The notes under the pieces are model-generated. The model made no database searches, was not told the DNA's origin, and saw only the letters and a list, made by a program, of their open reading frames with translations. A stretch of 64,000 bases of DNA from a bacterium. Lineage in GTDB: Bacteria; Patescibacteriota; Patescibacteriia; UBA1558; GWA2-36-10. Where the stretch lies: the NCBI GenBank assembly GCA_018653315.1, contig JABIAL010000021.1, positions 3,029 through 67,028 on the forward strand, read 5' to 3'. The stretch's first letter is position 1, and every line of letters begins with the position of its first letter. Positions 3,114 to 59,153 of this stretch are shown here, piece after piece. A program made the position numbers and the translations under genes.

Positions 3114-3836
3114 TTAAGATTTTGTTTCGACAACTTCTACTTCTGGTTTCTTTTTCTTAAACCCTAGTACCATATATTGTTGGAAAACTGAGAACAAAGT
3201 AGTTAGCAACCAATAAAAAGTAAGTCCAGCTGGAAAACTTGCTCCGATAACAATGGTAATTATTGGCAAGAAATACATCATCTGATTAGTCATGGCAGCC
3301 GCTGGATTTTTAGCCTTACTCTTACTCATCATCATCTTAGATTGCCAAAACTGAGCTGCGCCAGCTAACACTGCTAGCACGATGCTTTTATCACTTAAGT
3401 TCAAAAAACCAAAAGCCATAATATCCAAAGATTGTGGATTGGCTACAAAAGTATATAATGAACTGCTATCAAAAATCGCTCCGTCTTTTAACTCATTGAA
3501 AAATACCCGATAAATCGCGAACAAAAAAGGAAGTTGAACCAACATTGGTAAACAAGATCCAAAGGGATTAATTTTTCTTTCTTTATATAGTGCCATTATT
3601 TCCGGCCCCATCTTTTCTTTATTGTCTTTGTATTTTTCTTTGATCGCTTCTATCTCTGGTTGAATGGTTTGTAAAGATTTTTGTGATCTAATTGCTTGTT
3701 TGGACAGGGGATACAAAATCAAACGAACAATGATAGTCAAAAAGACTATTGCTAGACCAAGATCTTGCCAGGCAATAGTATTGTATAAAAAAACTAATAA
3801 ATTAAAGATTGGTTGGTAAAAAATGGTAAAAAACAT
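3114..3836 (-). CDS. yidC: membrane protein insertase YidC (short form)
   Basis: 240 aa polytopic protein. Sits in the conserved rpmH-rnpA-yidD-yidC order, with characteristic C-terminal TM pattern and a basic tail. Confidence 0.85.
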   Translation of the reverse strand: MFFTIFYQPIFNLLVFLYNTIAWQDLGLAIVFLTIIVRLILYPLSKQAIRSQKSLQTIQPEIEAIKEKYKDNKEKMGPEIMALYKERKINPFGSCLPMLVQLPFLFAIYRVFFNELKDGAIFDSSSLYTFVANPQSLDIMAFGFLNLSDKSIVLAVLAGAAQFWQSKMMMSKSKAKNPAAAMTNQMMYFLPIITIVIGASFPAGLTFYWLLTTLFSVFQQYMVLGFKKKKPEVEVVETKS

Positions 3837-3890
3837 TGTTATCTTTTTTTATTTAATAAATAATTACGTGTATTATACAGTATATATATT

Positions 3891-4163
3891 TTATAATAAA
3901 GGATCATCTCCACCCTTAGCCCAAGGATGACAACGAAAAATTCGTCGCATGCCCTTGAATCCTCCTTTAACTGCTCCATATTTTTCTATCGCTTGATAGG
4001 TATATTCAGAACAATGTGGTTTAAATCGGCAGTGCCCAAGTGGGTATTTATATTTAAACCAACCCATGTCTGGTGATAACGTGTGTTGGTATATCCGAAT
4101 CAGTACTAATAAAAAAATTCTTAGTGGTCTTTCTAAAAAATAATAAACCTCATTTACCCGCAT
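3891..4163 (-). CDS. yidD: membrane protein insertion efficiency factor YidD
   Basis: 90 aa. CRFxPxCSEY and HPWAKGGDDP motifs. Positioned between rnpA and yidC. Confidence 0.8.
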   Translation of the reverse strand: MRVNEVYYFLERPLRIFLLVLIRIYQHTLSPDMGWFKYKYPLGHCRFKPHCSEYTYQAIEKYGAVKGGFKGMRRIFRCHPWAKGGDDPLL

Positions 4164-4497
4164 AAACTCCTATTTTAGCTAATGCAAATTTAAACTGTTT
4201 AGTAATGGTAGCAAAGTCTAGTTCTAATGCCTTTTTTCTAGCAATAACCAAAATCGAATAACCATCCTTAATATCTGGTAATAAATCTTTAATTGCTTCT
4301 CGCATTTGTCTTTTAATGCGATTTCTAGCAACTGCTTTTTTATCTACCTTAGTAGAAACCACAAAAGCTATTTTACTTGGTTTTTCTTTGGTCTTTTGAT
4401 ATTTAATAATAAATTCAGGCAAAAAAAACGTCTGACCCTGACGGATCAAACTTTTTATTTCCGTTTCTTTATGTAATCTATAAGCTACTGGTAACAT
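4150..4497 (-). CDS. rnpA: ribonuclease P protein component
   Basis: 115 aa basic protein of RnpA type, located downstream of rpmH. Confidence 0.85.
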   Translation of the reverse strand: MLPVAYRLHKETEIKSLIRQGQTFFLPEFIIKYQKTKEKPSKIAFVVSTKVDKKAVARNRIKRQMREAIKDLLPDIKDGYSILVIARKKALELDFATITKQFKFALAKIGVYAGK

Positions 4498-4581
4498 AGC
4501 ACTTAAACTTAAAACCTTACTAACTAATAGCTTCGTAGTGAAGTTTTCATGTTTAGATAAATTTTATAATAAAAAACACCC

Positions 4582-4722
4582 TTAGACAGTAAGACTATCT
4601 CTCTTTTTGATACGACGTCTTTTTAGTATGTTGCGACCACCATTTGTTGCCATTCTTGCTCTAAAACCATGTGTTCTAGCTCTTTTTCTGGTTTTTGGTT
4701 GGTACGTTCTTTTAGTAGCCAT
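4582..4722 (-). CDS. rpmH: 50S ribosomal protein L34
   Basis: Not in the ORF track because it is under 60 aa. The minus strand translates to [46 protein letters not shown], a canonical L34. Confidence 0.85.
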
Positions 4723-4741
4723 GAATTTATTTATTATAATC

Positions 4742-4762
4742 CCTGCCTACCGGACAGGCAGG
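4742..4762. repeat. copy A of the palindromic repeat family (CCTGCCTaCCGGaCAGGCAGG)
   Basis: Inverted arms CCTGCCT/AGGCAGG around a CCGG core. Lies between the rpmH start and the dnaA upstream region. Confidence 0.6.
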
Positions 4763-4836
4763 CGCCTTCTAATGAGAAAAGTTAAATTGAACTGCTTTAA
4801 GATAACATGTTTTTATTATTTTGACAAGGCCAAACC

Positions 4837-4845
4837 TTGTCCACA
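4837..4845 (+). promoter_or_regulatory. DnaA-box-like 9-mer TTGTCCACA upstream of dnaA
   Basis: One mismatch to TTATCCACA. Lies in the AT-rich rpmH-dnaA spacer. Confidence 0.3.
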
Positions 4846-4955
4846 GTAACCCACATTTTATTAACACCTTATTAACTATTGACCCGTTTAAGTAAAACTA
4901 AATTTATGGTATATTGTATGATATTGATTAAAAAACTACCAAAAAATCATAAAAT

Positions 4956-6323
4956 ATGAGTAATCACGATAAAAATTGGCAAAGTGTGTTAGGAGAACTG
5001 GAGCTTTTAATTAGCCGGGCTAATTTTACAACCTGGTTCAAAAACACTTTTATTTTTGAAACCGGTGAAAAAGAAGTGATTATTGGTGTGCCAAATGCCT
5101 TTACTAAGGTTTGGCTGGAAAAGAAGTACCATAAAAACATCGTAAAAGCTTTAGGAAACGTGTTATCAAAAAGTAATCTACAGGTTATCTACAGGGTAGC
5201 AAACCAAGATAATTCAACTAATGTTAGCAAAAAAACAATAAATCCTGTTAAAATATCTGAGCCACCTGTGAATAACTTTAATGAAAACAGAAGCTCTAAT
5301 CGCTTTGGTCTAAACCCTAAATATACCTTTCAAAGCTTTATTGTTGGCCCCGGTAATGAACTGGCTCAGGCAGCCGCTCAGGCAGCCGCTAAAAAACCAG
5401 GTGAATTATACAACCCCTTATTTATTTACGGTGGTGTTGGCTTAGGTAAAACCCATTTAGTACAGGCTGTTGGAAACTATCTTTTAGCTAAGGATAGCAC
5501 AAAAAAAATATTATACATCAATAGTGAAAAGTTTACTAATGACTTTATTTATGCTATTAAAAATGGCCGTACCGAACAATTTAAACAAAATTATCGTGAA
5601 GTTGATGTCTTATTAATAGATGATATTCAATTTATCGCTGGAAAAGAGCAGACTCAGGAAGAATTTTTCCACACTTTTAATGCTTTACACCAAAATAACA
5701 AACAAATAGTCATTTCCTCAGATAGACCGCCAAAGGCTATTCCGGCTATTGAAAGTCGTTTAATTTCTCGTTTTGAGTGGGGAATGATAGCTGATATCTC
5801 TTTTCCTGATCTAGAAACAAGAATGGCTATTTTAGAGGTAAAGTGCCAAGAAAAAAACTGTGTTCTAGACGAAGATATCATTACTTATATTGCTAAAAGT
5901 ATTCAAGATAATATTAGAGAGCTAGAAGGGGCACTTAATAGAATTATTGCCTTTCATCAATTAAACAACACTAAACCAAGCCTTGAGAGCGTCCGTTCTA
6001 TTTTGGGTGGTATTTCTGCCAACCCAAAACGAGCCGGATTAACTGTTAAAAAATTACTGAGCATTGTAATTGACTTTTATGGTATTTCTTTAGATGATAT
6101 TTTAGGTAGCAGTAGAAAAAGAGAATTAGTCACCCCTCGTCAAATAGCGATGTTTTTAATGCGAGAAGAGCTTAAATCGTCTTATCCTAGCATTGGACAG
6201 GGTTTAGGGGGTAGAGACCACACCACGGCGATGCATGCTTGTATAAAAATAACAAAGATCATCGATGTTGATGAAAAAATAAAAAATGACGTGGCTGTTT
6301 TACGCCAAAAAATGTATGAATAA
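4956..6323 (+). CDS. dnaA: chromosomal replication initiator protein DnaA
   Basis: 455 aa. Walker A GGVGLGKTHL, AAA+ box, and the C-terminal DNA-binding domain signature. Confidence 0.95.
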   Translation: MSNHDKNWQSVLGELELLISRANFTTWFKNTFIFETGEKEVIIGVPNAFTKVWLEKKYHKNIVKALGNVLSKSNLQVIYRVANQDNSTNVSKKTINPVKISEPPVNNFNENRSSNRFGLNPKYTFQSFIVGPGNELAQAAAQAAAKKPGELYNPLFIYGGVGLGKTHLVQAVGNYLLAKDSTKKILYINSEKFTNDFIYAIKNGRTEQFKQNYREVDVLLIDDIQFIAGKEQTQEEFFHTFNALHQNNKQIVISSDRPPKAIPAIESRLISRFEWGMIADISFPDLETRMAILEVKCQEKNCVLDEDIITYIAKSIQDNIRELEGALNRIIAFHQLNNTKPSLESVRSILGGISANPKRAGLTVKKLLSIVIDFYGISLDDILGSSRKRELVTPRQIAMFLMREELKSSYPSIGQGLGGRDHTTAMHACIKITKIIDVDEKIKNDVAVLRQKMYE

Positions 6324-6593
6324 ATCCCCTTAATAAGCTGTTAATAAACACTGGATAGAAGCTAAGTGCTTTGTTAATAAATAACGACTTATCAACACAC
6401 TTTTTTCACAAAGCAAAACTTATTCACATTTTCAAAAACATAAACACCACTAATCAACCGTTTATCCCAAGTTAAAATTCATCGTTTTGAATAAAAAAGT
6501 TTAACAAAATTAAATAAAACCCCACACTTATTAACATATCAACAGGCCTTACTACTACTACTATTTATATATAAATAACTAATATATAATTAT

Positions 6594-7688
6594 ATGCACT
6601 TAAGTTGCACACAAGAAAATCTAAATAAAGGACTAGGACTGGTCTCACATATTGCCAATAAAAATAGCAACCTACCAATCTTAAATAATGTTCTCTTAAA
6701 AGCAGGTAAGAACGGCTTAACTTTAGTTACGACTGATCTAGAGATAGGGATTAAGGTTTTTGTTAGAAGCAAGGTAGAGGAAGAGGGTAGTTTTACAGTA
6801 GCTGCTAAACTATTAAATGAATTTATAGGTTTATTGCCAAGAGAAAATATAAATATAGCATTAAAAGAAGATAATCTTTATATTAAAAGCCAAAACCACA
6901 AAACCAATATTAAAGGATTAGAGGCCGAAGACTTTCCACTTATTCCAGAGATCGAAAAAGAAAATGAAGTTGAATTAAGTATTACAGAATTTAAAACAGC
7001 CCTAAGCCAAACCGTATTCGCCGCTTCTTTGGATGGTTCTCGAGCAGAAATCAACGCTGTTAACTTTTGTTTTTCCAAAGATGAACTAATAATGGCAGCC
7101 ACAGATAGTTATCGTTTAGCCGAAAAAAGATTAAGTATAAACAATAGTCAGGAGAAGTCGTTAATTATTCCACTGAAAACAATTCAGGAATTATTAAGAA
7201 TCCTAAACGACCAAGCAGAGCAGAAATTAAAGCTTTATTTTAATGAAAATCAAATCATGTTTGTTTTTGATGGGGTGGAATTAATTTCTCGTGTAGTAGA
7301 AGGGAAGTATCCAGACTATCAACAAATTATACCAAGTGATTTTAGCACTACTGCAAAATGTGAAACAAACAAGCTTATTCCTGCTATAAAATCCGCTGCT
7401 TTGTTTTGTAAACAGGGCATAAATGACGTTCGCTTAAGTTTTGCTAAAAATGAAATTGTAATTGCCTCTGCTTCTTCTGCTGTTGGTGAAAATGTTATTA
7501 AAGTGCCAGCTGAGGTTACCGGTGATGAGAACGACATTGTTTTTAACTTTAGATATTTATTAGATGGCCTAAGCAACATTGGCAAACAAGAGGTTGTGTT
7601 TAATATTAATAACAACGCCTCACCTGGTTTGTTACAAGGTAAAAATAATAAAAACTATCTTTATTTGATTATGCCAATTAGACAATAA
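6594..7688 (+). CDS. dnaN: DNA polymerase III beta sliding clamp
   Basis: 364 aa with three-domain clamp architecture. Located immediately downstream of dnaA. Confidence 0.9.
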   Translation: MHLSCTQENLNKGLGLVSHIANKNSNLPILNNVLLKAGKNGLTLVTTDLEIGIKVFVRSKVEEEGSFTVAAKLLNEFIGLLPRENINIALKEDNLYIKSQNHKTNIKGLEAEDFPLIPEIEKENEVELSITEFKTALSQTVFAASLDGSRAEINAVNFCFSKDELIMAATDSYRLAEKRLSINNSQEKSLIIPLKTIQELLRILNDQAEQKLKLYFNENQIMFVFDGVELISRVVEGKYPDYQQIIPSDFSTTAKCETNKLIPAIKSAALFCKQGINDVRLSFAKNEIVIASASSAVGENVIKVPAEVTGDENDIVFNFRYLLDGLSNIGKQEVVFNINNNASPGLLQGKNNKNYLYLIMPIRQ

Positions 7689-28032: not shown

Positions 28033-29148
28033 ATGAAAAACGCAAAAAAAATCATTGACTCTTTATTGACCGGTACCGGCATTACTATCAATGGATCAAA
28101 TGTTTATGATCCGCAAGTACACAACGATAAGTTTTATAGCCGAGTTTTAAGAGGTGGTTCTTTAGCGCTTGGCGAGTCTTATATGGATGGTTGGTGGGAC
28201 TGTGAAAAACTTGATCAGTTTTTTCATAAGGTTCTCAAAGCAAATTTAGATGAACGCATTAAGAAAAATTTAGACTTAATGCTTAGAATTGCCTGGAATT
28301 TTGTTTTAAATCCAGGTAGAGAATCCAAGGCTTTTGAAGTAGGTGAAAAGCATTATGATATTGGTAATGCTTTATATCGTCAGATGCTTGATAAACGCCT
28401 TACCTATACTTGTGGTTATTGGAAAGACGTACAAGATTTAGATGAGGCAGAAGAAGCAAAATTAGACTTAGTTTGTAGAAAGATTGGACTTAATACTGGA
28501 CAGAGTATATTAGATATTGGTTCTGGTTGGGGCAGTTTCATTGGCTATGCTGCTGAAAAATATGATGCTCATACAGTTGGCTATACTATTTCCAGAGAAC
28601 AAAAAGAACTAGCCGACGAGATGTATAAAAAATATTCCGCTGAAACCAGGTTACAAGATTATCGTAATATTAATGAAAAATTTGACCATGTTGTTTCAAT
28701 CGGGATGTTTGAACATGTGGGCTATAAAAACCACCGTACTTTTATGAAGGTTGCTAGTAAGTCATTAAAAGATGATGGTTTATTTTTGTTACATACTATA
28801 GCTGGTAATAAGTCAGTCAAAGCGACTGATTCCTGGATTAATAAACATATTTTTCCAAATAGCATGTTGCCATCTATGACTCAGATCGGCAAAGCAATTG
28901 AGGGATTATTTGTGATAGAGGACGTGCATAATTTTGGTCCTGATTATGATAAGACATTGATGGCTTGGTTTGCTAATTTTGATAAGGCTTGGCCAGGGAT
29001 AAAACAAAATTATTCCGAACGTTTTTATCGTATGTGGAAATATTATCTTTTGTCCTGTGCTGGTAGTTTTCGAGCTAGACGTATTCAATTATGGCAAATT
29101 GTTTTGTCTAAACATGGAGTCGCTAATGGATATAAATCAGTTAGATAA
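28033..29148 (+). CDS. cfa: cyclopropane-fatty-acyl-phospholipid synthase family SAM-dependent methyltransferase
   Basis: 371 aa. CMAS-family blocks (YDIGNALYRQML, LDIGSGWGS SAM-binding motif, conserved C-terminal region). Confidence 0.8.
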   Translation: MKNAKKIIDSLLTGTGITINGSNVYDPQVHNDKFYSRVLRGGSLALGESYMDGWWDCEKLDQFFHKVLKANLDERIKKNLDLMLRIAWNFVLNPGRESKAFEVGEKHYDIGNALYRQMLDKRLTYTCGYWKDVQDLDEAEEAKLDLVCRKIGLNTGQSILDIGSGWGSFIGYAAEKYDAHTVGYTISREQKELADEMYKKYSAETRLQDYRNINEKFDHVVSIGMFEHVGYKNHRTFMKVASKSLKDDGLFLLHTIAGNKSVKATDSWINKHIFPNSMLPSMTQIGKAIEGLFVIEDVHNFGPDYDKTLMAWFANFDKAWPGIKQNYSERFYRMWKYYLLSCAGSFRARRIQLWQIVLSKHGVANGYKSVR

Positions 29149-31340: not shown

Positions 31341-32702
31341 ATGCCTAGACTGCGAATTCTTACTATTATTTTATTTGGAGTGTTCATCATGACCACTGGT
31401 TTTGGTTGTAAGCAAAGCATTACCAATAAAGAAGAGTTTAAGCCAATTTCTTTAGAGTATTGGGGAGTTTGGGATACGCCGGGGCAGATGGCTAGTGTAA
31501 TCAATGCTTATCAGGACACCCATCCAACTATTAAGGTGAGATACAAAAATTTTCGTTATGATGAGTATGAACAAAAATTATTAGAAGCAGCCTGGGAAGA
31601 CAGAGTGCCTGATTTGTTCATGATCCCTGTTTCTTGGTTACCAAAATATCAAGAGCGTTTACAGGCAATTCCAAAAAGCGTTAAAATTCCTATTTTAGAA
31701 ATGCAGGGCACTATTAAAAAAGAAGCCGTGCCAGTGTTAAAAACTATTAATAGTTTATCTTTGCGTGATATTAAAGATCGTTATGTTAGTGTTGTTTATG
31801 ATAATGTAATTAGAGAAGGAGAAATTTACGGCTTACCATATTCTGTTGATTCATTGGTTACTTTTTATAATTCAGATTTATTAACAGCTTCAAATATTCC
31901 CGAACCAATAGAAGATTTTCATGATTTAGTTGAACAGATTCAAAAAGATGGTCTTTCTAAGATAGGGACTGGCAATAGAATTATACAGGCTGGTGTAGCC
32001 ATGGGTGGCACAGATAACATTCCTCGTTTTTTTGATATCTTGTCCAGTATTATGATGCAAAATGATGTTGAGCTGAAAGGGAGTAATTTTAATCCCTTAC
32101 AAAGTAAGGACTCAACACGGTACATGGCAGAGGCAATTGGTTTTTATACAGATTTTGCTAATCCTAATAAGTCAGTATTTTCTTGGGATGATAGTTTACC
32201 AGACGCCTTTGAAATATTTACACAAGGTAAGTTAGCTTATTTTTTTGGTTATAGTTATCATGCTGACGAATTACGTAAACGAGGCGTCCAGTTTGATTGG
32301 GATATAACTAATTTTCCTAAAACCAGAGGTGCAGAGGGTGATAAATATTATAGCAATTATTGGATAAACGTTGTTCCGAAAAAATCAAAAAATAAAGACG
32401 CAGCTTGGAATTTTATTCAAAGTGCAACTAGTAAAGATTTGGTGGTTAATTATTTAGATACTAATAAAAAACCAACAGCCTTAAGAGCCTTAATAAAAGA
32501 TCAGTTAGAAGATGATGAGGTGAGAGTTTTTGCTTCACAAGTTTTAGCCGCAGATAATTGGTACAAGGGTTATGATCTTACAGCAGCAGAAATGTATATG
32601 GCAGATTTTATAGAAGACCTATTATCAGGAGAGCTTAATCTTGATGAAAGTGGTTTAGGGTTTTTGGTTCAGCGCATTCGCCGTACCTATCAAGCACGAT
32701 AA
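31341..32702 (+). CDS. ABC-type extracellular solute-binding lipoprotein (family 1, sugar/oligosaccharide type), orphan
   Basis: 453 aa. Lipobox-like TTGFGC after a signal peptide. No permease or ATPase genes are adjacent. Confidence 0.55.
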   Translation: MPRLRILTIILFGVFIMTTGFGCKQSITNKEEFKPISLEYWGVWDTPGQMASVINAYQDTHPTIKVRYKNFRYDEYEQKLLEAAWEDRVPDLFMIPVSWLPKYQERLQAIPKSVKIPILEMQGTIKKEAVPVLKTINSLSLRDIKDRYVSVVYDNVIREGEIYGLPYSVDSLVTFYNSDLLTASNIPEPIEDFHDLVEQIQKDGLSKIGTGNRIIQAGVAMGGTDNIPRFFDILSSIMMQNDVELKGSNFNPLQSKDSTRYMAEAIGFYTDFANPNKSVFSWDDSLPDAFEIFTQGKLAYFFGYSYHADELRKRGVQFDWDITNFPKTRGAEGDKYYSNYWINVVPKKSKNKDAAWNFIQSATSKDLVVNYLDTNKKPTALRALIKDQLEDDEVRVFASQVLAADNWYKGYDLTAAEMYMADFIEDLLSGELNLDESGLGFLVQRIRRTYQAR

Positions 32703-32714
32703 TTTTTTAATAAT

Positions 32715-33677
32715 ATGAAAAAAGTATTAAACTTAGCAATTTTATTTTCTTTGTTAGCTATGCCAAGTATGGCTAGTGCTGGATTTTTGGATAAGTTAAG
32801 TTGCGTAAAAGGGGGGCTAAATTGTAGTCTTGATGAAGTAGCAACTAGTTTTGTTTTACTTACAAAATTTTTAATTAGCGCAATTGGTGTGGCAGCTCTA
32901 TTGTATTTTATTTGGGGTGGCGTCCAATTACTTACCTCTTATGGTAACATGGAAAGGATAAAGCGCGGACAACAAATAATGTGGCACACTATGTTTGCCA
33001 TGGTAATTACTTTTAGTAGTTTTTTATTAGTTGAATTTTTTATTAATGATATTTTAAATGCTGATGACCAGGTAGTTGCTATGTGCGGTACCGAGCCAAT
33101 ACACAAACAATGTAATGAGCATGAAAAAAATTATGTTTGCACTGGGCATCAATTTCCAATAGAGCAAGATGCTTACAATGGTTTATGTGTGCCAAAATGC
33201 CAATTACAAAATTGGCTAGAAGAAGATACTTGGTTGTGTCTTGATAAAAGTATCGCTGAAGATGTTGTTGGAGATGGTAAATTTGATGGTTGTTCAAATC
33301 CAAATGACCTATGTGTTAATGCAAATAAACTACCCATTAAAGAGTTAATTCAAGAGACTAATTCTTTAAATATTGATATTAATATAACTGAGTACGTTGG
33401 TTGTTGTGTGAATGGCATACAATCATGTATTACTAAAGAATCAGAAGTGGCTTGTCATAATCTTGATCCTAATGCTGCTTGGTTTAATGTTTCTTGTGAC
33501 GAGGTGGGAATGTGCCAAGATGGTTATCATGCTGATCCTGGTTGTTGCCTTGGTATTCAAGATGGTAATGTTGTAGAGTGTTTGGAAATAGAAATAGGGG
33601 TGTGTGCATGGGATGATGGTATAACAGCAGAATTTTATGCTGACACCACTTGTCCACCTGAACCGCCATGTTTATAA
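32715..33677 (+). CDS. VirB2/TrbC-like two-TM pilin-type domain fused to a ~200-aa Cys-rich extracytoplasmic domain
   Basis: 320 aa. Signal peptide and two TM helices with a GG-x-x-LL-TS-x-G loop resembling the four downstream paralogs, then more than 20 cysteines in the C-terminal 200 aa. Confidence 0.45.
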   Translation: MKKVLNLAILFSLLAMPSMASAGFLDKLSCVKGGLNCSLDEVATSFVLLTKFLISAIGVAALLYFIWGGVQLLTSYGNMERIKRGQQIMWHTMFAMVITFSSFLLVEFFINDILNADDQVVAMCGTEPIHKQCNEHEKNYVCTGHQFPIEQDAYNGLCVPKCQLQNWLEEDTWLCLDKSIAEDVVGDGKFDGCSNPNDLCVNANKLPIKELIQETNSLNIDINITEYVGCCVNGIQSCITKESEVACHNLDPNAAWFNVSCDEVGMCQDGYHADPGCCLGIQDGNVVECLEIEIGVCAWDDGITAEFYADTTCPPEPPCL

Positions 33678-33692
33678 TTTAATTCTTATAAT

Positions 33693-34043
33693 ATGTTAAA
33701 CAAAAAGAAAAATATTTTATTTACCTTGTTTTTATTGAGCGTACCTTGGTGTGTCCAAGCGGGCACGGCACTACATAATCCATTAGAGGGTAGTGCTAGT
33801 GATTTTCCAACATTAATTGGTGGTGTTATTAGAGGAATGTTGGGTGTAGTGGGGGCAGTAGCCTTAATTATGATTGTTATCGGAGGTATTACTTGGATGA
33901 CTTCATCTGGTAATGCTGATAGGGTACGCCGTGGCAAAGACACATTGGTTTGGGCGGTCATTGGTTTAACTGCTATATTTTTAAGTTACGCAGTTGTTAA
34001 TTTTATATTTGATGCCGTTGTTAGAGGTGGCTCAGGATCTTAG
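33693..34043 (+). CDS. VirB2/TrbC-like (T4SS-pilin-like) small two-TM protein, paralog 2
   Basis: 116 aa. Signal peptide, TM1, loop GGITWMTSSGNADRV, TM2. Confidence 0.5.
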   Translation: MLNKKKNILFTLFLLSVPWCVQAGTALHNPLEGSASDFPTLIGGVIRGMLGVVGAVALIMIVIGGITWMTSSGNADRVRRGKDTLVWAVIGLTAIFLSYAVVNFIFDAVVRGGSGS

Positions 34044-34044
34044 G

Positions 34045-34073
34045 TTGAATAAATGACATTTTTGTTTTATAAT
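34045..34073 (+). promoter_or_regulatory. sigma70-like promoter for paralog 3
   Basis: TTGAAT, 17-nt spacer, TATAAT (34068-34073). A strong AAGGGGGTGA Shine-Dalgarno sits before the ATG at 34115. Confidence 0.45.
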
Positions 34074-34114
34074 AATTGTATGAAATTATGTTTTTATAGA
34101 AAGGGGGTGAAAAA

Positions 34115-34462
34115 ATGAACAAAATAATTACAAGTTTATTATTGTTAGCTCCAATGGCCGCTTCAGCTGCTACCAATCCGTTTGGTGTTGATGATTTAAC
34201 ATCTACAGGCTTGGGTACACAAGATTTAAAGACAACCATTGCTAGTATTATTAATGTTGTTTTAGGATTCTTAGGAATCATCGCTACTTTAATTATTCTT
34301 TTAGGTGGTTTTAAATGGATGACCTCTCAAGGTAGTTCTGAAAAAGTAGATGAGGCTAAAAAACTTATCGGTGCTGGTGTTGTAGGATTAGTCATAGTAT
34401 TAGCAGCTTATGCTATTGCTAGATTTGTTTTGACAAATGTTTATGAGGCAACAACCGCATAA
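34115..34462 (+). CDS. VirB2/TrbC-like small two-TM protein, paralog 3
   Basis: 115 aa. Loop GGFKWMTSQGSSEKV. Confidence 0.5.
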   Translation: MNKIITSLLLLAPMAASAATNPFGVDDLTSTGLGTQDLKTTIASIINVVLGFLGIIATLIILLGGFKWMTSQGSSEKVDEAKKLIGAGVVGLVIVLAAYAIARFVLTNVYEATTA

Positions 34463-34559
34463 CAGGCTTATTATAGTCTAGACTATAGTAGGTCATGCAA
34501 GTGACCTACTAAAGTGTAGATTAAAATAGTACCGGTATAATAAATCAAAAAACAAACAG

Positions 34560-34904
34560 ATGAACAAAATAATTACAAGTTTATTATTACTAGCTCCGAT
34601 GGCCGCTTCAGCTGATCTTAGTGATCTTGGTTATGATGATTTAGATTCTGTACATTTGGGTACGCAAGATCTAAAGACAACTATTGCTAGTATTATTAAT
34701 GTAGTTTTAGGATTCTTAGGAATCATCGCTACTTTAATTATTCTTTTAGGTGGTTTTAAATGGATGACCTCTCAAGGTAGTACTGAAAAAGTAAGCGAAG
34801 CTAAAAATCTGATCGGCGCTGGTGTTGTAGGATTAGTCATAGTATTAGCAGCTTATGCTATTGCTAGATTTGTTTTACGAGAAGTTTATCAAGCAACTTA
34901 TTGA
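34560..34904 (+). CDS. VirB2/TrbC-like small two-TM protein, paralog 4 (near-identical recent duplicate of paralog 3)
   Basis: 114 aa, about 95 percent nucleotide identity to paralog 3 except for a ~50-nt segment encoding the mature N-terminus. Confidence 0.5.
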   Translation: MNKIITSLLLLAPMAASADLSDLGYDDLDSVHLGTQDLKTTIASIINVVLGFLGIIATLIILLGGFKWMTSQGSTEKVSEAKNLIGAGVVGLVIVLAAYAIARFVLREVYQATY

Positions 34905-34949
34905 TATATTTTAGCATAGTTTATATTAAGTATTTTTAACAAAATAAAC

Positions 34950-35324
34950 ATGAAACATAAAATATTTTTTACATTTTTGTTATTATTACCAATGCAAGCA
35001 GCTGCGTCAGCAGCGCAGGATGGATTAGATGCTGCCGCTGCCCAGGCTGGACTTAATACTGATCGTAGTGTTATTGATATGATTGCCATTGTGATTAATG
35101 CAATTTTGAGCTTGTTAGCAATGATTTTTATTGTGTTGATTATCTTAGGTGGTTTTCGTTGGATGACTTCAGCTGGAAATGCTACAAAGGTAGATTCTGC
35201 TAAACAGACTATATCAAATGCAGTTATTGGTTTAGTAATAGTTGTGGCTGCTTATGCTATTGCTACATTTGTATTAGGAGCAGTAGTTGGTAGTACTAGT
35301 GGCGGTGGAGTTACACAACCTTAA
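34950..35324 (+). CDS. VirB2/TrbC-like small two-TM protein, paralog 5
   Basis: 124 aa. Loop GGFRWMTSAGNATKV and a Gly/Ser-rich C-terminus. Confidence 0.5.
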   Translation: MKHKIFFTFLLLLPMQAAASAAQDGLDAAAAQAGLNTDRSVIDMIAIVINAILSLLAMIFIVLIILGGFRWMTSAGNATKVDSAKQTISNAVIGLVIVVAAYAIATFVLGAVVGSTSGGGVTQP

Positions 35325-35344
35325 TTTATTTTAAGTATAAAAAG

Positions 35345-35376
35345 AACCCGCGTTTGTTTTCAAACGCGGGTTTTTG
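35345..35376. terminator. bidirectional rho-independent terminator
   Basis: AACCCGCGTTTG-tttt-CAAACGCGGGTT flanked by an A-run and a T-run. Separates the pilin-like array from the convergent lipoprotein gene. Confidence 0.7.
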
Positions 35377-35390
35377 ATTCTTAGAGACGA

Positions 35391-36038
35391 TTACTCGATG
35401 CTAATCACCCAATCAACGAGCCGCCCGTTTAACTCGGCATCCTTTTTAATGTTATTGATGCGAGTTACATATTTCATCTTCCGGTTTTGGGAAGCATTGA
35501 TTGGCTGGTAATAAATGGTGATATTACCAGGTGTCATAGCGGTCATCTCGCTAACCTGGCCGACATTCAGAACACCATATTGATGTCCTTTACTGTCCCA
35601 GATACGACACTTCCAGCGTGTCGAATTGATGATTACACCACTTTGCAACACTATGTTGCGTAATAGCATCTCATCAATCCTGACGACCTGTACACCACCC
35701 CATCTGGCGGTGCGCTTGATCGGTGCCACAATTTCTTCGCTACTCCAACCATTTTCCTCCCACGTTTTGACCAGAATAGTGATCTGATCTCTTCTGGCGA
35801 TTGATTCACTGTGAGAGCATCCTGTGTTGAGTTCCATATAATGCATTCCTGGTTCTTGTTTGATGCGCACCATATAGCGTTCATCTTCGCTGGTGTTTTC
35901 AAATCTCCACTCAGATTTTTTTTCATCATAGTCTTCTCCACCATGATAGGCGGGTCGGACTGTTCCGGCGCAATTACTCAAAATCAGCATCATTGCTAAT
36001 AATGAACAAAAAGCCACCATTTTTTTCAGCGTTTTCAT
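35391..36038 (-). CDS. lipoprotein, hypothetical (GC-richer than surroundings)
   Basis: 215 aa. Signal peptide with lipobox LSNCAG. No recognisable domain. The gene looks about 10 points GC-richer than its neighbours by eye. Confidence 0.45.
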   Translation of the reverse strand: MKTLKKMVAFCSLLAMMLILSNCAGTVRPAYHGGEDYDEKKSEWRFENTSEDERYMVRIKQEPGMHYMELNTGCSHSESIARRDQITILVKTWEENGWSSEEIVAPIKRTARWGGVQVVRIDEMLLRNIVLQSGVIINSTRWKCRIWDSKGHQYGVLNVGQVSEMTAMTPGNITIYYQPINASQNRKMKYVTRINNIKKDAELNGRLVDWVISIE

Positions 36039-36152: not shown

Positions 36153-38009
36153 ATGCTTTTTTTGTCTAAAATTCGCTTATTTATCGATAAATATAGTAAA
36201 CAACTACTATGGCTATTAATTATCGCCTACGGGCTATTTTTTGGCTATTTAAGCCTCTTAAAGCTTGATTATTTCATCTATAACAATTTTGATCTTAGTA
36301 TTTTTAACCAGGTTTTCTACAACACCCTAAATGGTAATTGGCTGGAGATGACTATTAATTTACACACTTATTTAGCTGATCATTTTACGCCAATTATTTT
36401 TTTACTATTACCAATCTATGCTTTAAAAATTGGCCCAGAAAATTTGTTAATCATCCAGTCTTTTTCTTTGGCTCTGGCTGCTTGGCCACTATATTTAATT
36501 ACTCACAAAGTTTCACGTAATAATTTATTAGCTTTAAGCGTGGCTATATTTTGGCTGTTAAATCCTTTTGTGCATTATGCTAATATCTATGAGTTTCATT
36601 TATTAACCCTTGCTCCATTTTTCTTTTTTTGGTGTTTTTATTTTTATCAAGAAAATAAATTTAAACCATTTATAGTTTTATTTGCCATAGCGTTATTAAT
36701 CAGAGAAGATGTTTCTTTATTCTTGTTAGGTTTTTCTATTTTAGCATTTTTAGATAAAAAAGATTGGCGTTGGAAGTATTTAGTACCCATCATTTCGTTG
36801 ATTTATTTTTTTGTCGCCTTACGAATAATAGATTATTTCTCTCCTGACGGAGCTTATAAATTTTTAGCTTATTATGGTTGGCTGGGAGGTTCGGATGTTT
36901 TATCCATTGCTTGGTCATTTGTTTCTCATCCTATTAAAGTCTTATTGCATGTCTTTAGTTGGCAAAATATAAGCAGTGCTTTAATTGTTTTATGGCCATT
37001 TTTATTTTTACCACTCTTAAAATCAAAGTACTTACTTTTATCTCTAGTGTCATTTTCAGCTACTCTTTTAACGGCTACTAGTTTTGCGTCAATTATATTT
37101 TATACGCACTACAGTTTATTTATTTTACCAAGTATCTTTATTTGCTTTATTTTTTCTTTGCACAGTTTGAAATTTTCTAAGCATAAAAGTTTTATTTATT
37201 TATTATTAGCTACCACGGTAATTTATCTAGCTATTTTCTTATCCCCTATAAAAAGTTTATTAACTTACCCATTTGATAAACAAGGGCTTGATTATCGACA
37301 AGAGGTCTTAGAACAAATTGGAGACCAAGCTACTATTGCGGCTAGCACATCATTTTTACCAGACTTAAGTAGCAGAGAAACAGTGTACCCTGTTAGTTAT
37401 AGTTATTTTGGTGGTGGTCAGTTTTTGATAGAAGATTTTGACTTACCACTAGTTGATTATATTTTAATAGATTATAAAAACTTTTTTGTAGATATGGCAG
37501 CTACTAATGCAACATTTTTTTCAACCGAAAGAAAGGTCATGATGAATAGTCGTTGGGGCGATAAACTACAAAAATATTCTTTAATTTGGGCCAAAAACGA
37601 TATTTTATTATTCCAGAATAAAGAACAGGTTGCAGAAGGTTTGTTTTTAACAGAAGTATTATCAGAACAAGAAGAACAGTTTAAAGACAATTATAATTTA
37701 ATTTTTGACAGTTATTTTGATAATCAAAATAATATTTTAGAGCTAAAGTTAAACTCCAACTTATTGTCAGATAAACATTTAATTCGTTTTTATCGTGATG
37801 ATTATTATTTTGATTTACCGCTAGCCTACTCTTTATTTTCGGCTGAGTCAGATGTTATTGATAAGACAATAATGGTGAAATATTATCTAAGTTCAGATGT
37901 TAAATCTTACCAGGTATTTACTTGGCAGGCTGAAAATATACTAGGGCTAGTTGGCGAGGCTTTATCTGATTTTAAATTGCAGTCAATAATTGATCAGACA
38001 TCATTATAA
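36153..38009 (+). CDS. large polytopic membrane protein with C-terminal extracytoplasmic domain (GT-C-fold/DUF2079-like), hypothetical
   Basis: 618 aa. About 12 TM helices in the first 400 aa, then a soluble ~200-aa tail. Confidence 0.4.
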   Translation: MLFLSKIRLFIDKYSKQLLWLLIIAYGLFFGYLSLLKLDYFIYNNFDLSIFNQVFYNTLNGNWLEMTINLHTYLADHFTPIIFLLLPIYALKIGPENLLIIQSFSLALAAWPLYLITHKVSRNNLLALSVAIFWLLNPFVHYANIYEFHLLTLAPFFFFWCFYFYQENKFKPFIVLFAIALLIREDVSLFLLGFSILAFLDKKDWRWKYLVPIISLIYFFVALRIIDYFSPDGAYKFLAYYGWLGGSDVLSIAWSFVSHPIKVLLHVFSWQNISSALIVLWPFLFLPLLKSKYLLLSLVSFSATLLTATSFASIIFYTHYSLFILPSIFICFIFSLHSLKFSKHKSFIYLLLATTVIYLAIFLSPIKSLLTYPFDKQGLDYRQEVLEQIGDQATIAASTSFLPDLSSRETVYPVSYSYFGGGQFLIEDFDLPLVDYILIDYKNFFVDMAATNATFFSTERKVMMNSRWGDKLQKYSLIWAKNDILLFQNKEQVAEGLFLTEVLSEQEEQFKDNYNLIFDSYFDNQNNILELKLNSNLLSDKHLIRFYRDDYYFDLPLAYSLFSAESDVIDKTIMVKYYLSSDVKSYQVFTWQAENILGLVGEALSDFKLQSIIDQTSL

Positions 38010-58189: not shown

Positions 58190-58645
58190 TTAAAATACAG
58201 GAAGTACAATGTCACCGCAACCTGTGGATGGAGCACAAAGAATAAATTCACCAGGAGAGCTGTCTATGAGGTGAATTGACAGTACGTAATCTTGATTGGC
58301 GCTAGTTCCTACATTATTCCATTCCCAGCCATCGGCTGGTGGAGGCCAATTTTGCTCGCCACTGCAAATGGATTTATCAATTGCTGGTATTTTTGCTGGA
58401 CCACCGTCATACAAATCACAATCTGGGCAAAGCGCTTTGTCATCATATGCACATAAGATCAGAATAGGCTTAATGACGCTTACGATTTGTTTCATGGCTC
58501 CTCGTCTAGCTTTAGCTCTAGCTGAATTAACACCAATCACACCGACACTAGTAATAATACCAATGATAGCTATAACCACTAATAACTCAACCAGAGTGAA
58601 TCCTAATAAGTTTTTCTTTTTATTTTTATATTTCATATTAAGCAC
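58190..58645 (-). CDS. type IV pilin / pseudopilin with Cys-rich C-terminal domain
   Basis: 151 aa. Class III prepilin leader with cleavage motif LLGFTLVELLVVIAIIGI. Confidence 0.7.
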   Translation of the reverse strand: MLNMKYKNKKKNLLGFTLVELLVVIAIIGIITSVGVIGVNSARAKARRGAMKQIVSVIKPILILCAYDDKALCPDCDLYDGGPAKIPAIDKSICSGEQNWPPPADGWEWNNVGTSANQDYVLSIHLIDSSPGEFILCAPSTGCGDIVLPVF

Positions 58646-59153
58646 ATGTTCCAGTTACCTTACAGTTATTATTGCAGCAATCAAAATCTATTGAGCAAGC
58701 CTTGGTTGATCCAGCGCAAGCACAAGTTACATCTATTCCTTCTCCGCAATTAGATTCAGTGCAATATATATATTCGTCTGCGTCTGATTTTTTAATTTCA
58801 TAACAAAATTGACCAGTTTGATAAGTTGATTTTGATTTTTGATAAATATAATCATCAAAACTCGCCCAACGCCAACTGTTTAAAAAGTTCCAACACAAAT
58901 ATTCAGGAGGACCTGGTGTATTCGTGCCATTGCATTGTGTTCCAGCGCATTGTAATTCTGAATTACTATCTAAACAAAGCATGGCCATGGTCTGCATGTC
59001 TTTCATTTGAGTTACCACCTTGGTCTTTTCTGCTTTATCGATAGCTGAACGGACATTTATAACACTAACACTGGTCAGAATGCCAATAATGGCAATAACA
59101 ACTAGTAATTCTACTAGAGTGAAACCTAATAAGTTTGTATTTTTATTTTTCAT
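58638..59153 (-). CDS. type IV pilin with Cys-rich C-terminal domain
   Basis: 171 aa. Prepilin motif LLGFTLVELLVVIAIIGIL, and at least 15 Cys in the globular head. Confidence 0.7.
   Translation of the reverse strand: MKNKNTNLLGFTLVELLVVIAIIGILTSVSVINVRSAIDKAEKTKVVTQMKDMQTMAMLCLDSNSELQCAGTQCNGTNTPGPPEYLCWNFLNSWRWASFDDYIYQKSKSTYQTGQFCYEIKKSDADEYIYCTESNCGEGIDVTCACAGSTKACSIDFDCCNNNCKVTGTCA

Follow-up and report, generated by a model that had tools for sequence, protein, structure and literature searches.

We analysed a 64-kb window, that is, a stretch of 64,000 nucleotides (nt) from contig JABIAL010000021.1 of assembly GCA_018653315.1, derived from a bacterium of the phylum Patescibacteriota, which contains five tandem genes for VirB2-like pilin proteins at 32715-35324. 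The third and fourth of these, referred to as gene A and gene B, code for two very similar proteins and are the main subject of this work. Both are intact open reading frames (ORFs) in tandem, as described in an initial annotation made from the sequence, and no further pilin paralog was found within the 64-kb window outside the five-gene array. The features of the locus are listed in Table 1; labels such as L001 or L002 denote related loci or contigs used for comparison.

Table 1. Features of the pilin array and its immediate surroundings (positions refer to the 64-kb window; SBP, solute-binding protein; HMM, hidden Markov model; AF2, AlphaFold2)
Feature	Position	Strand	Evidence or remark
SBP lipoprotein gene (context)	31341..32702	+	Pfam SBP_bac_1/SBP_bac_8; adjoins array on upstream side
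Array gene 1, N-terminal pilin-like module with Cys-rich C-terminal extension of ~200 aa	32715..33677	+	paralog HMM
Array gene 2, VirB2-like pilin paralog, 116 aa	33693..34043	+	PF18895, 42.5 bits; PF04956, 26.6 bits
Shine-Dalgarno motif GAAAGGGGGTGA of gene A	34099..34110	+	sole strong one in array; upstream-region comparison
Gene A, anchor VirB2/TrbC-like pilin, 115 aa	34115..34462	+	PF18895, PF04956, AF2 model
Gene A, signal peptide	34115-34168	+	
Gene A, N-terminal patch	34169-34210	+	
Gene A, loop-proximal tract	34337-34372	+	
Gene A, tail	34433-34459	+	
RNA stem-loop, directly 3' of gene A	34468-34538	+	invariant 5' arm TAGTCTAGACTATAGTAGG, covarying apical stem
Gene B, extra copy of A coding sequence, 114 aa	34560..34904	+	PF18895, PF04956, codon comparison
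Gene B, divergent patch	34614-34655	+	
Gene B, loop-proximal tract	34782-34817	+	
Gene B, divergent tail	34878-34901	+	
Array gene 5, VirB2-like pilin paralog, 124 aa	34950..35324	+	PF18895, 36.8 bits
DUF2079 polytopic membrane protein (context), downstream of array	36153..38009	+	PF09852, 192 bits; synteny in relatives

The products of both genes scored above the gathering thresholds of two Pfam families of type IV secretion system (T4SS) pilins, with 36.4 bits (A) and 35.4 bits (B) against PF18895 (T4SS_pilin, cutoff 26.6) and 30.0 and 29.4 bits against PF04956 (TrbC/VirB2, cutoff 27.9), which upholds their earlier description as pilin-like. We retrieved about 1,790 homologs, nearly all matching PF18895 and essentially all encoded in metagenome-assembled genomes (MAGs) of Patescibacteria; the nearest named sources were Nomurabacteria and Komeilibacteria, and Parcubacteria MAGs were also among the nearest relatives. 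The other paralogs of the array share 29-44% identity with the protein of gene A. An AF2 model based on 58 homologs places a signal helix at residues 2-16, leaves residues 17-37 disordered and folds residues 38-69 and 75-114 into a helical hairpin with predicted local distance difference test (pLDDT) values above 90, so that sequence and model agree on the signal peptide followed by two hydrophobic helices with a short loop that is typical of the family. The A and B proteins would be exported by the Sec system, cleaved after a predicted ASA motif and inserted as two-helix hairpins, with about 19 N-terminal and about 8 C-terminal residues exposed on the outside and the loop facing the cytoplasm, or the lumen if a filament is formed. 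Cleavage site, topology and filament formation are deduced from sequence and model, and the divergent N-terminal segment is accordingly predicted to be extracytoplasmic and disordered, which agrees with the exposed position assigned to it at first.

The coding sequences of A and B differ at 41 of 336 aligned nt, corresponding to 87.8% identity over the whole length or 92.5% outside codons 19-32, whereas approximately 95% had been estimated initially; the proteins are 86-87% identical. The signal peptides of 18 amino acids (aa) are identical, as noted before, and their codons contain three synonymous nt changes. Residues 33-74 are likewise identical, comprising an LGTQ motif, helix 1 and the sequence GGFKWMTSQGS, which confirms the identity of the first transmembrane helix; the loop, also thought to be identical, is followed at the start of helix 2 by a loop-proximal tract with the exchanges S75T, D79S and K83N, based on eight changes in nt 223-258 and flanked by exact shared runs of 78 and 59 nt. 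Most differences are concentrated in a patch at residues 19-32, which begins just past the predicted cleavage site. In this patch, 9 of 14 residues differ via 19 of 42 nt, and G24, D26, D27, L28 and S30 are kept; the divergent block is therefore real, although shorter and less complete than the almost wholly different stretch of about 16 residues in the initial annotation. The divergence reported for the C-terminal ends was also found, affecting five or six of the last nine residues. This clustering is far from random: none of 20,000 permutations produced a 42-nt window with 19 differences, and in five codons, where 0.2 were expected, all three positions are changed. The similarity of A and B starts at the ATG and stops near codon 112, and the flanks are non-homologous, including a unique 97-nt spacer between the genes which contains the stem-loop listed in Table 1. 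Hence, the duplication unit is the coding sequence only.

The two genes are also distinguished by their surroundings. Gene A is the positional orthologue of a gene present as a single copy in relatives, and its Shine-Dalgarno (SD) motif is kept before the orthologous gene in L001, L002, L003, L008, L010 and L011; a comparison of the upstream regions revealed no strong SD before gene B or array genes 1, 2 and 5. Directly behind gene A follows an RNA stem-loop of about 70 nt with a folding energy of -32.4 kcal/mol (z = -6.1), which was found after the orthologous anchor gene throughout the clade. Its 19 pairs are formed in 98.2% of the aligned cells, four of them with compensatory changes, and the covariation score was reached by none of 500 shuffled alignments. 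A covariance model yielded 58-85 bits on the sense strand versus 30-56 bits on the antisense strand, and G-U pairs are tolerated on the sense strand only. The 5' arm of 19 nt is invariant across genomes with saturated synonymous sites in the coding regions, and all 38 occurrences of this 19-mer in an unbiased scan of metagenome contigs were located within 60 nt past a pilin ORF. An Rfam scan of 34000-35400 returned no match covering the stem-loop. We also considered an intrinsic terminator and rejected it, as the structure was not flagged by a terminator scan and is not followed by a U-tract. A brief literature search, in which both papers on Patescibacteria T4SS were checked for pilin and VirB2 terms only, turned up no published description, and of all features of this locus we regard the conserved stem-loop as the most novel.

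Gene B is located behind the stem-loop and has neither an SD nor a 3' stem-loop of its own. Because A carries the only strong SD together with the 3' stem-loop, we predict that A provides the major subunit, with B acting as a less abundant alternative or as a minor subunit. Relatives also contain duplications of the anchor gene, at differing positions: in L001, SD and stem-loop are part of the duplicated unit, in L002 and L008 the extra copy lies upstream, and in the window it lies downstream, which indicates independent duplication events.

The synonymous divergence (dS) between A and B amounts to 0.18 in the core and 0.24 over the whole genes, which is 50-100 times the divergence among the sampled strains (0-0.5% at the nt level, or 99.5-100% identity). 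The duplication must therefore long predate the sampled population, and the initial view of a very recent event had to be given up. With a nonsynonymous divergence (dN) of 0.026 and a dS of 0.18, the core shows a dN/dS ratio of about 0.14, which indicates that A and B are both functional and that their core is under purifying selection; the ORF of gene B was intact in every assembly covering it. We performed the dN/dS comparison by segments that had been proposed with the initial annotation and obtained a dN of 0.81 and a dS of 0.40 for codons 19-32, compared to 0.024 and 0.19 for codons 33-106. The proportion of replacement differences in the patch (pN = 0.495, 16 of 32 sites) exceeds that of synonymous differences over the whole gene (pS = 0.206, 16.5 of 80 sites; Fisher p = 0.005, for a window chosen post hoc), which is consistent with selection for different surfaces. 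Likewise, the 19 differing nt of the patch compare to about 8.6 under a neutral expectation (binomial p = 3e-4). Because the conserved residues in and beside the patch carry only one synonymous change in nine codons, the patch appears to be no older than the core, with an excess specifically in replacements.

The interpretation to which we incline, with slightly more confidence than doubt, is that B is a lineage-specific extra copy of A, in which the core remained constrained and the outward ends diverged faster than neutral, with A as major and B as minor subunit. A single duplication of the A coding sequence (dS of about 0.2) would have been followed by strong purifying selection on the hairpin core, which may occasionally have been homogenised by gene conversion between A and B, while replacements would have accumulated above the neutral rate at the two outward ends and, to a lesser degree, at the three loop-proximal residues. 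The outcome would be two subunits with the same assembly core and different exterior surfaces. The accelerated divergence of the exterior-facing ends was probably adaptive, and the replacement excess suggests selection for a distinct surface towards a host, a partner cell or a phage. Of the two processes offered in the initial annotation, diversifying selection or gene conversion, the former is probable for the patch, and the latter is possible for the core rather than for the patch.

Several points weigh against this interpretation. The selection signal stems from one pairwise comparison with a 14-codon window picked after looking at the data, and the dN/dS ratio within the patch (about 2) is not significant by itself. 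Synonymous divergence is somewhat higher in patch and tail (8 of 19 sites) than in the core (8 of 51 sites; p = 0.03). On the structural side, a Foldseek comparison of the model with PDB structures returned nothing significant, two paired helices being too simple a fold, and a profile search of the PDB sequences gave spurious matches only. Finally, Pfam scans detected no gene for VirB4, VirB6 or VirD4, the ATPases and channel component of a T4SS, in the 64-kb window, nor in relatives in the 6 kb on either side of the array. The designation as T4SS pilus subunits is therefore a putative one, made from the sequence family.

The divergence of the ends might also be explained by plain duplication and neutral drift where constraint is weakest, without selection for difference or conversion. 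Family-wide entropies are indeed highest in the N-terminal patch and the C-terminal tail (2.09 and 1.94 bits vs. 0.46-0.72 in the core), and since these segments are the least conserved ones of the family, any duplicate would be expected to diverge there first. Drift alone does not account for a pN in the patch of 2.4 times the gene-wide synonymous divergence, for the excess of differing nt or for the triple-hit codons described above, and three replacements, one of them based on a triple-nt change, fall into the loop-proximal segment, which is the most conserved one in the family. We therefore regard this explanation as unlikely.

A more serious competitor, although one we still consider rather improbable, is an old duplicate subject to concerted evolution, in which conversion between A and B keeps the signal peptide and core alike and heterology or selection stops the conversion tracts at patch and tail. 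The higher synonymous divergence at the ends also fits such an older duplicate with a homogenised core, and the exact shared runs around the loop tract point in the same direction. The same pattern was strongly developed in two independent paralog pairs, with a core dS of 0.23 versus 1.2 in the patch and a saturated tail in L001 (p = 1e-4), and a core dS of 0.04 versus 0.3-0.5 at the ends in L011 (p = 8e-4); furthermore, two paralogs in L048 (2648-3752) have cores with 99.2% nt identity and unrelated N-terminal domains. Core homogenisation does, therefore, occur in this pilin family. For the A/B pair, the conserved patch residues speak against it, as the single synonymous change in about 6.3 synonymous sites supports, at odds of about 10 to 1, an age equal to that of the core (own calculation). 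In addition, the flanks show that B is a lineage-specific insertion, and by their positions, the duplications in L001, in L002/L008 and in the window are independent of each other.

Paralogs with unrelated N-terminal domains were also observed in L062 (4658-5727; cores 88.7% identical at the nt level), and some of the N-terminal domains in cases such as L048 and L062 are Cys-rich. The opposite type of mosaic, an identical N-terminus with a divergent loop, occurs in L020 (5511-6354). Modular shuffling looks common in this pilin family.

Direct support for conversion between A and B was initially seen in some related contigs, which carry the eight linked sites of the loop tract from the other copy. 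If the tract types of A and B are designated a and b, L081 is b/b, L082, L083, L084 and L086 are a/a, and in L087, a MEGAHIT k141 contig, gene B carries tract a. BLAST searches with the loop tract matched only the counterpart in gene A and orthologous genes. The homogenised state turned out to be correlated with the assembler, as it was present in all five SPAdes NODE_ contigs compared to one of seven MEGAHIT k141 contigs (Fisher p of about 0.015, own calculation on the counts). The maximum k usually employed by metaSPAdes is 55. Since the shared repeats of 78 and 59 nt exceed this value, collapse of the assembly bubble would yield exactly the a/a and b/b configurations, and the mosaic contigs are probably assembler artefacts. 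We therefore gave the strain mosaics less weight and no longer take them to prove gene conversion. We also rejected a reciprocal exchange of the A and B loops between P0001 and P0002, because these derive from separate contigs and the configurations encountered were a/b, a/a and b/b. Overall, gene conversion at A/B is possible for the core, not for the patch, and the evidence from strains is confounded by the assembler.

The initial annotation had also proposed a cassette-like hypervariable patch. A programmed mechanism that varies an exposed epitope, be it pilE/pilS-type cassettes or a diversity-generating retroelement (DGR), would account for a short block of divergence with sharp borders between identical flanks in the gene of a surface protein, and we consider it highly improbable at this locus. 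Patch and tail of both genes were invariant in about 17 independent assemblies, the power of this comparison being low with strains that are 99.5-100% identical. Short-word BLAST searches of the window and of about 115 related loci detected no second copy of either of the patches or tails, which together with the invariance led us to reject cassette variation. A DGR was rejected because adenines account for only 5 of the 19 mismatches in A and for 4 of the 19 in B, and because no reverse transcriptase was present among the Pfam-scanned ORFs. An import of the patch and tail of B from an allele of the L010/P0008 type was also dropped, since the patch of B agrees with that of L010 in 6 of 16 residues and with that of A in 9 of 16; the sole remaining likeness is an 18-nt match in the tail (EVYQAT). 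A patch fixed and unselected among strains had been named as the outcome speaking against the initial proposal, and the patch is indeed fixed, although strains differing by only 0.1-0.5% provide little power in this respect.

The metagenomic source and the long exact repeats shared by the copies raise the further question of whether A and B may be alleles of one gene from two strains, wrongly assembled in tandem. This chimera, also considered at the outset, was ruled out by the recurrence of the same tandem arrangement, sequences and unique 97-nt spacer in independent ENA, NCBI and JGI assemblies, and by the different flanks of A and B, which makes it an extremely remote prospect. The a/b arrangement was found at the DNA level in MEGAHIT k141 contigs from several samples, in the NCBI assembly GCA_018657795.1 (100% identical) and in JGI 3300022916, and the pair was recognised from the exact A and B proteins in JGI 3300072015.

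Array gene 1 differs from the other members by its length. Its N-terminal module was recognised by an HMM built from the four short paralogs (36.9 bits, E = 4.6e-11), and its score against the Pfam T4SS_pilin model is sub-threshold (16.4 bits). The extension contains many cysteines and matches no Pfam or NCBIfam model, and relatives have versions of 210-360 aa in the same position; the product could be a candidate tip or adhesin-like subunit. An 18-bp in-frame indel at 33337-33354 in the Cys-rich extension is polymorphic among strains (320 vs. 314 aa), and each of the two indel states was seen together with the a/b as well as the a/a loop configuration.

The array is linked to the SBP lipoprotein and DUF2079 genes, not to T4SS ATPases. 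At least 23 of the 30 relatives compared (L001-L030) have the SBP gene directly before the array and keep the order of NTP-transferase, SBP lipoprotein, array, small minus-strand lipoprotein, DUF2079 and YebC genes, and these syntenic genes fill the 6-kb flanks of the array. The SBP lipoprotein is an orphan with neither an ABC permease nor an ATPase nearby. The interval between array and DUF2079 gene contains a small lipoprotein gene on the minus strand (35391-36038), convergent with the array, which matches no family and varies in length among strains (215 vs. 209 aa), and a strong bidirectional terminator-like hairpin is located between this gene and array gene 5 (35345-35372). The window has a GC content of 33% and is chromosomal with housekeeping genes, including rnpA-yidC and dnaA-dnaN at 3-8 kb and ftsK, recA, ruvC, polA and tyrS. 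In the origin region (3114-7688), yidC and rnpA are on the minus strand and dnaA and dnaN on the plus strand, and the GC skew has its minimum there. The array lies about 28 kb downstream and is co-oriented with replication, a position that fits the published observation that T4SS components of Patescibacteria are often found near dnaA. A different pilus system is represented in the same window by the product of 58638-59153 (minus strand), a protein of 171 aa that carries the N-terminal methylation motif of type IV pilins (PF07963). At the 3' end of a cyclopropane-fatty-acid-synthase-like gene (28941-29005), eight single-nucleotide polymorphisms within 65 nt separate L082-L084 from the window; these contigs differ by about 0.1% elsewhere, and the stretch looks like a recombination tract or an assembly effect.

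The locus closely resembles the VirB2-like arrays known from Patescibacteria, which also consist of tandem small PF18895/PF04956 proteins with a Sec signal and two hydrophobic helices, encoded on the chromosome fairly near dnaA. According to Quinonero-Coronel et al. (2025, PMC12102498), such arrays contain 2-11 genes with a mean paralog identity of 25% and a maximum of 54%; among the relatives examined here, arrays of 3-9 pilin genes are the rule, and 9 of 75 contained a paralog pair with at least 80% identity. The array studied here deviates from the described ones in that A and B are much more similar than the maximum given in that study, in its location within the SBP lipoprotein/array/DUF2079 block and not beside virB4 or virB6, and in the conserved 3' stem-loop marking the anchor gene. 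The VirB2 paralogs of Anaplasma phagocytophilum show most of their variation in two places, at the N-terminus and near the C-terminus (Al-Khedery et al. 2012, PMC3556328), and the VirB2 paralogs of Anaplasmataceae have been read as parts of an antigenically variable, surface-exposed organelle (PMC3556328). Multiple tandem copies and variation at the same two ends are shared with our array. In contrast, the Anaplasma genes belong to a diderm intracellular pathogen and occur beside virB4-2 as 8-15 paralogs that differ between strains, whereas we are dealing with a monoderm environmental host, no adjacent ATPase and no detected variation between strains.

In the F-pilin TraA, both termini are exposed on the filament exterior, where phages attach, and the inter-helix loop faces the lumen (Costa et al. 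2016, PMC5018250). The A and B proteins share with the TraA/T-pilin/TrbC family the architecture of a small helical hairpin with a signal peptide and the TrbC/VirB2 score above threshold, and if the topology of TraA is mapped onto them, their differences fall on the exterior and on three lumen-proximal residues. They are unlike the solved pilins in showing no similarity detectable by PDB profile or Foldseek searches, and for A and B a filament, phospholipid co-assembly and cyclisation would be hypothetical. Over the whole hairpin, the products of genes 2, A, B and 5 also match the model of the Mbov_0395 family pilin-like protein of Mycoplasma integrative conjugative elements (NCBIfam NF045849; E = 1e-8 to 1e-10), with scores of 34-38 bits that remain under the curated cutoff of 40, so that they are not members by the rule of NCBI. 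This likeness fits a proposed kinship of Patescibacteria T4SS with the conjugation systems of monoderms.

The locus thus adds one more case to a pattern known from VirB2-like pilin arrays and does not represent a new kind of system; the pattern is expected for the family and unusual only in how similar A and B are. We also considered, as a tentative and rather doubtful combination, that the stem-loop is an undescribed clade-wide cis-regulatory RNA and that short tracts continue to be converted between A and B in a natural marine population. If this were true, the stem-loop could act as a processing, stability or attenuation signal or as a protein-binding site and would set the ratio of the major pilin to the variant subunits encoded behind it, and ongoing conversion would create mosaic pilins with a homogenised core and two exterior ends kept apart by selection.

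VirB2-like arrays belong to the small number of gene sets that a cultivated Patescibacterium has been shown to require for its epibiotic life: as stated by Wang et al. (2023, PMC10633639) and also in PMC12857230, the pilin array of Southlakia epibionticum is essential. The A/B pair shows that such arrays can contain near-identical copies, in contrast to the maximum of 54% identity given in the literature, and our comparison of contigs cautions that metagenome assemblers can homogenise tandem paralogs and thereby mimic gene conversion. The locus represents a natural experiment, in which two pilins have near-identical assembly cores and differ only where a filament would face outside, and these differences point to the residues to be mutated or swapped in tests of host or partner recognition.

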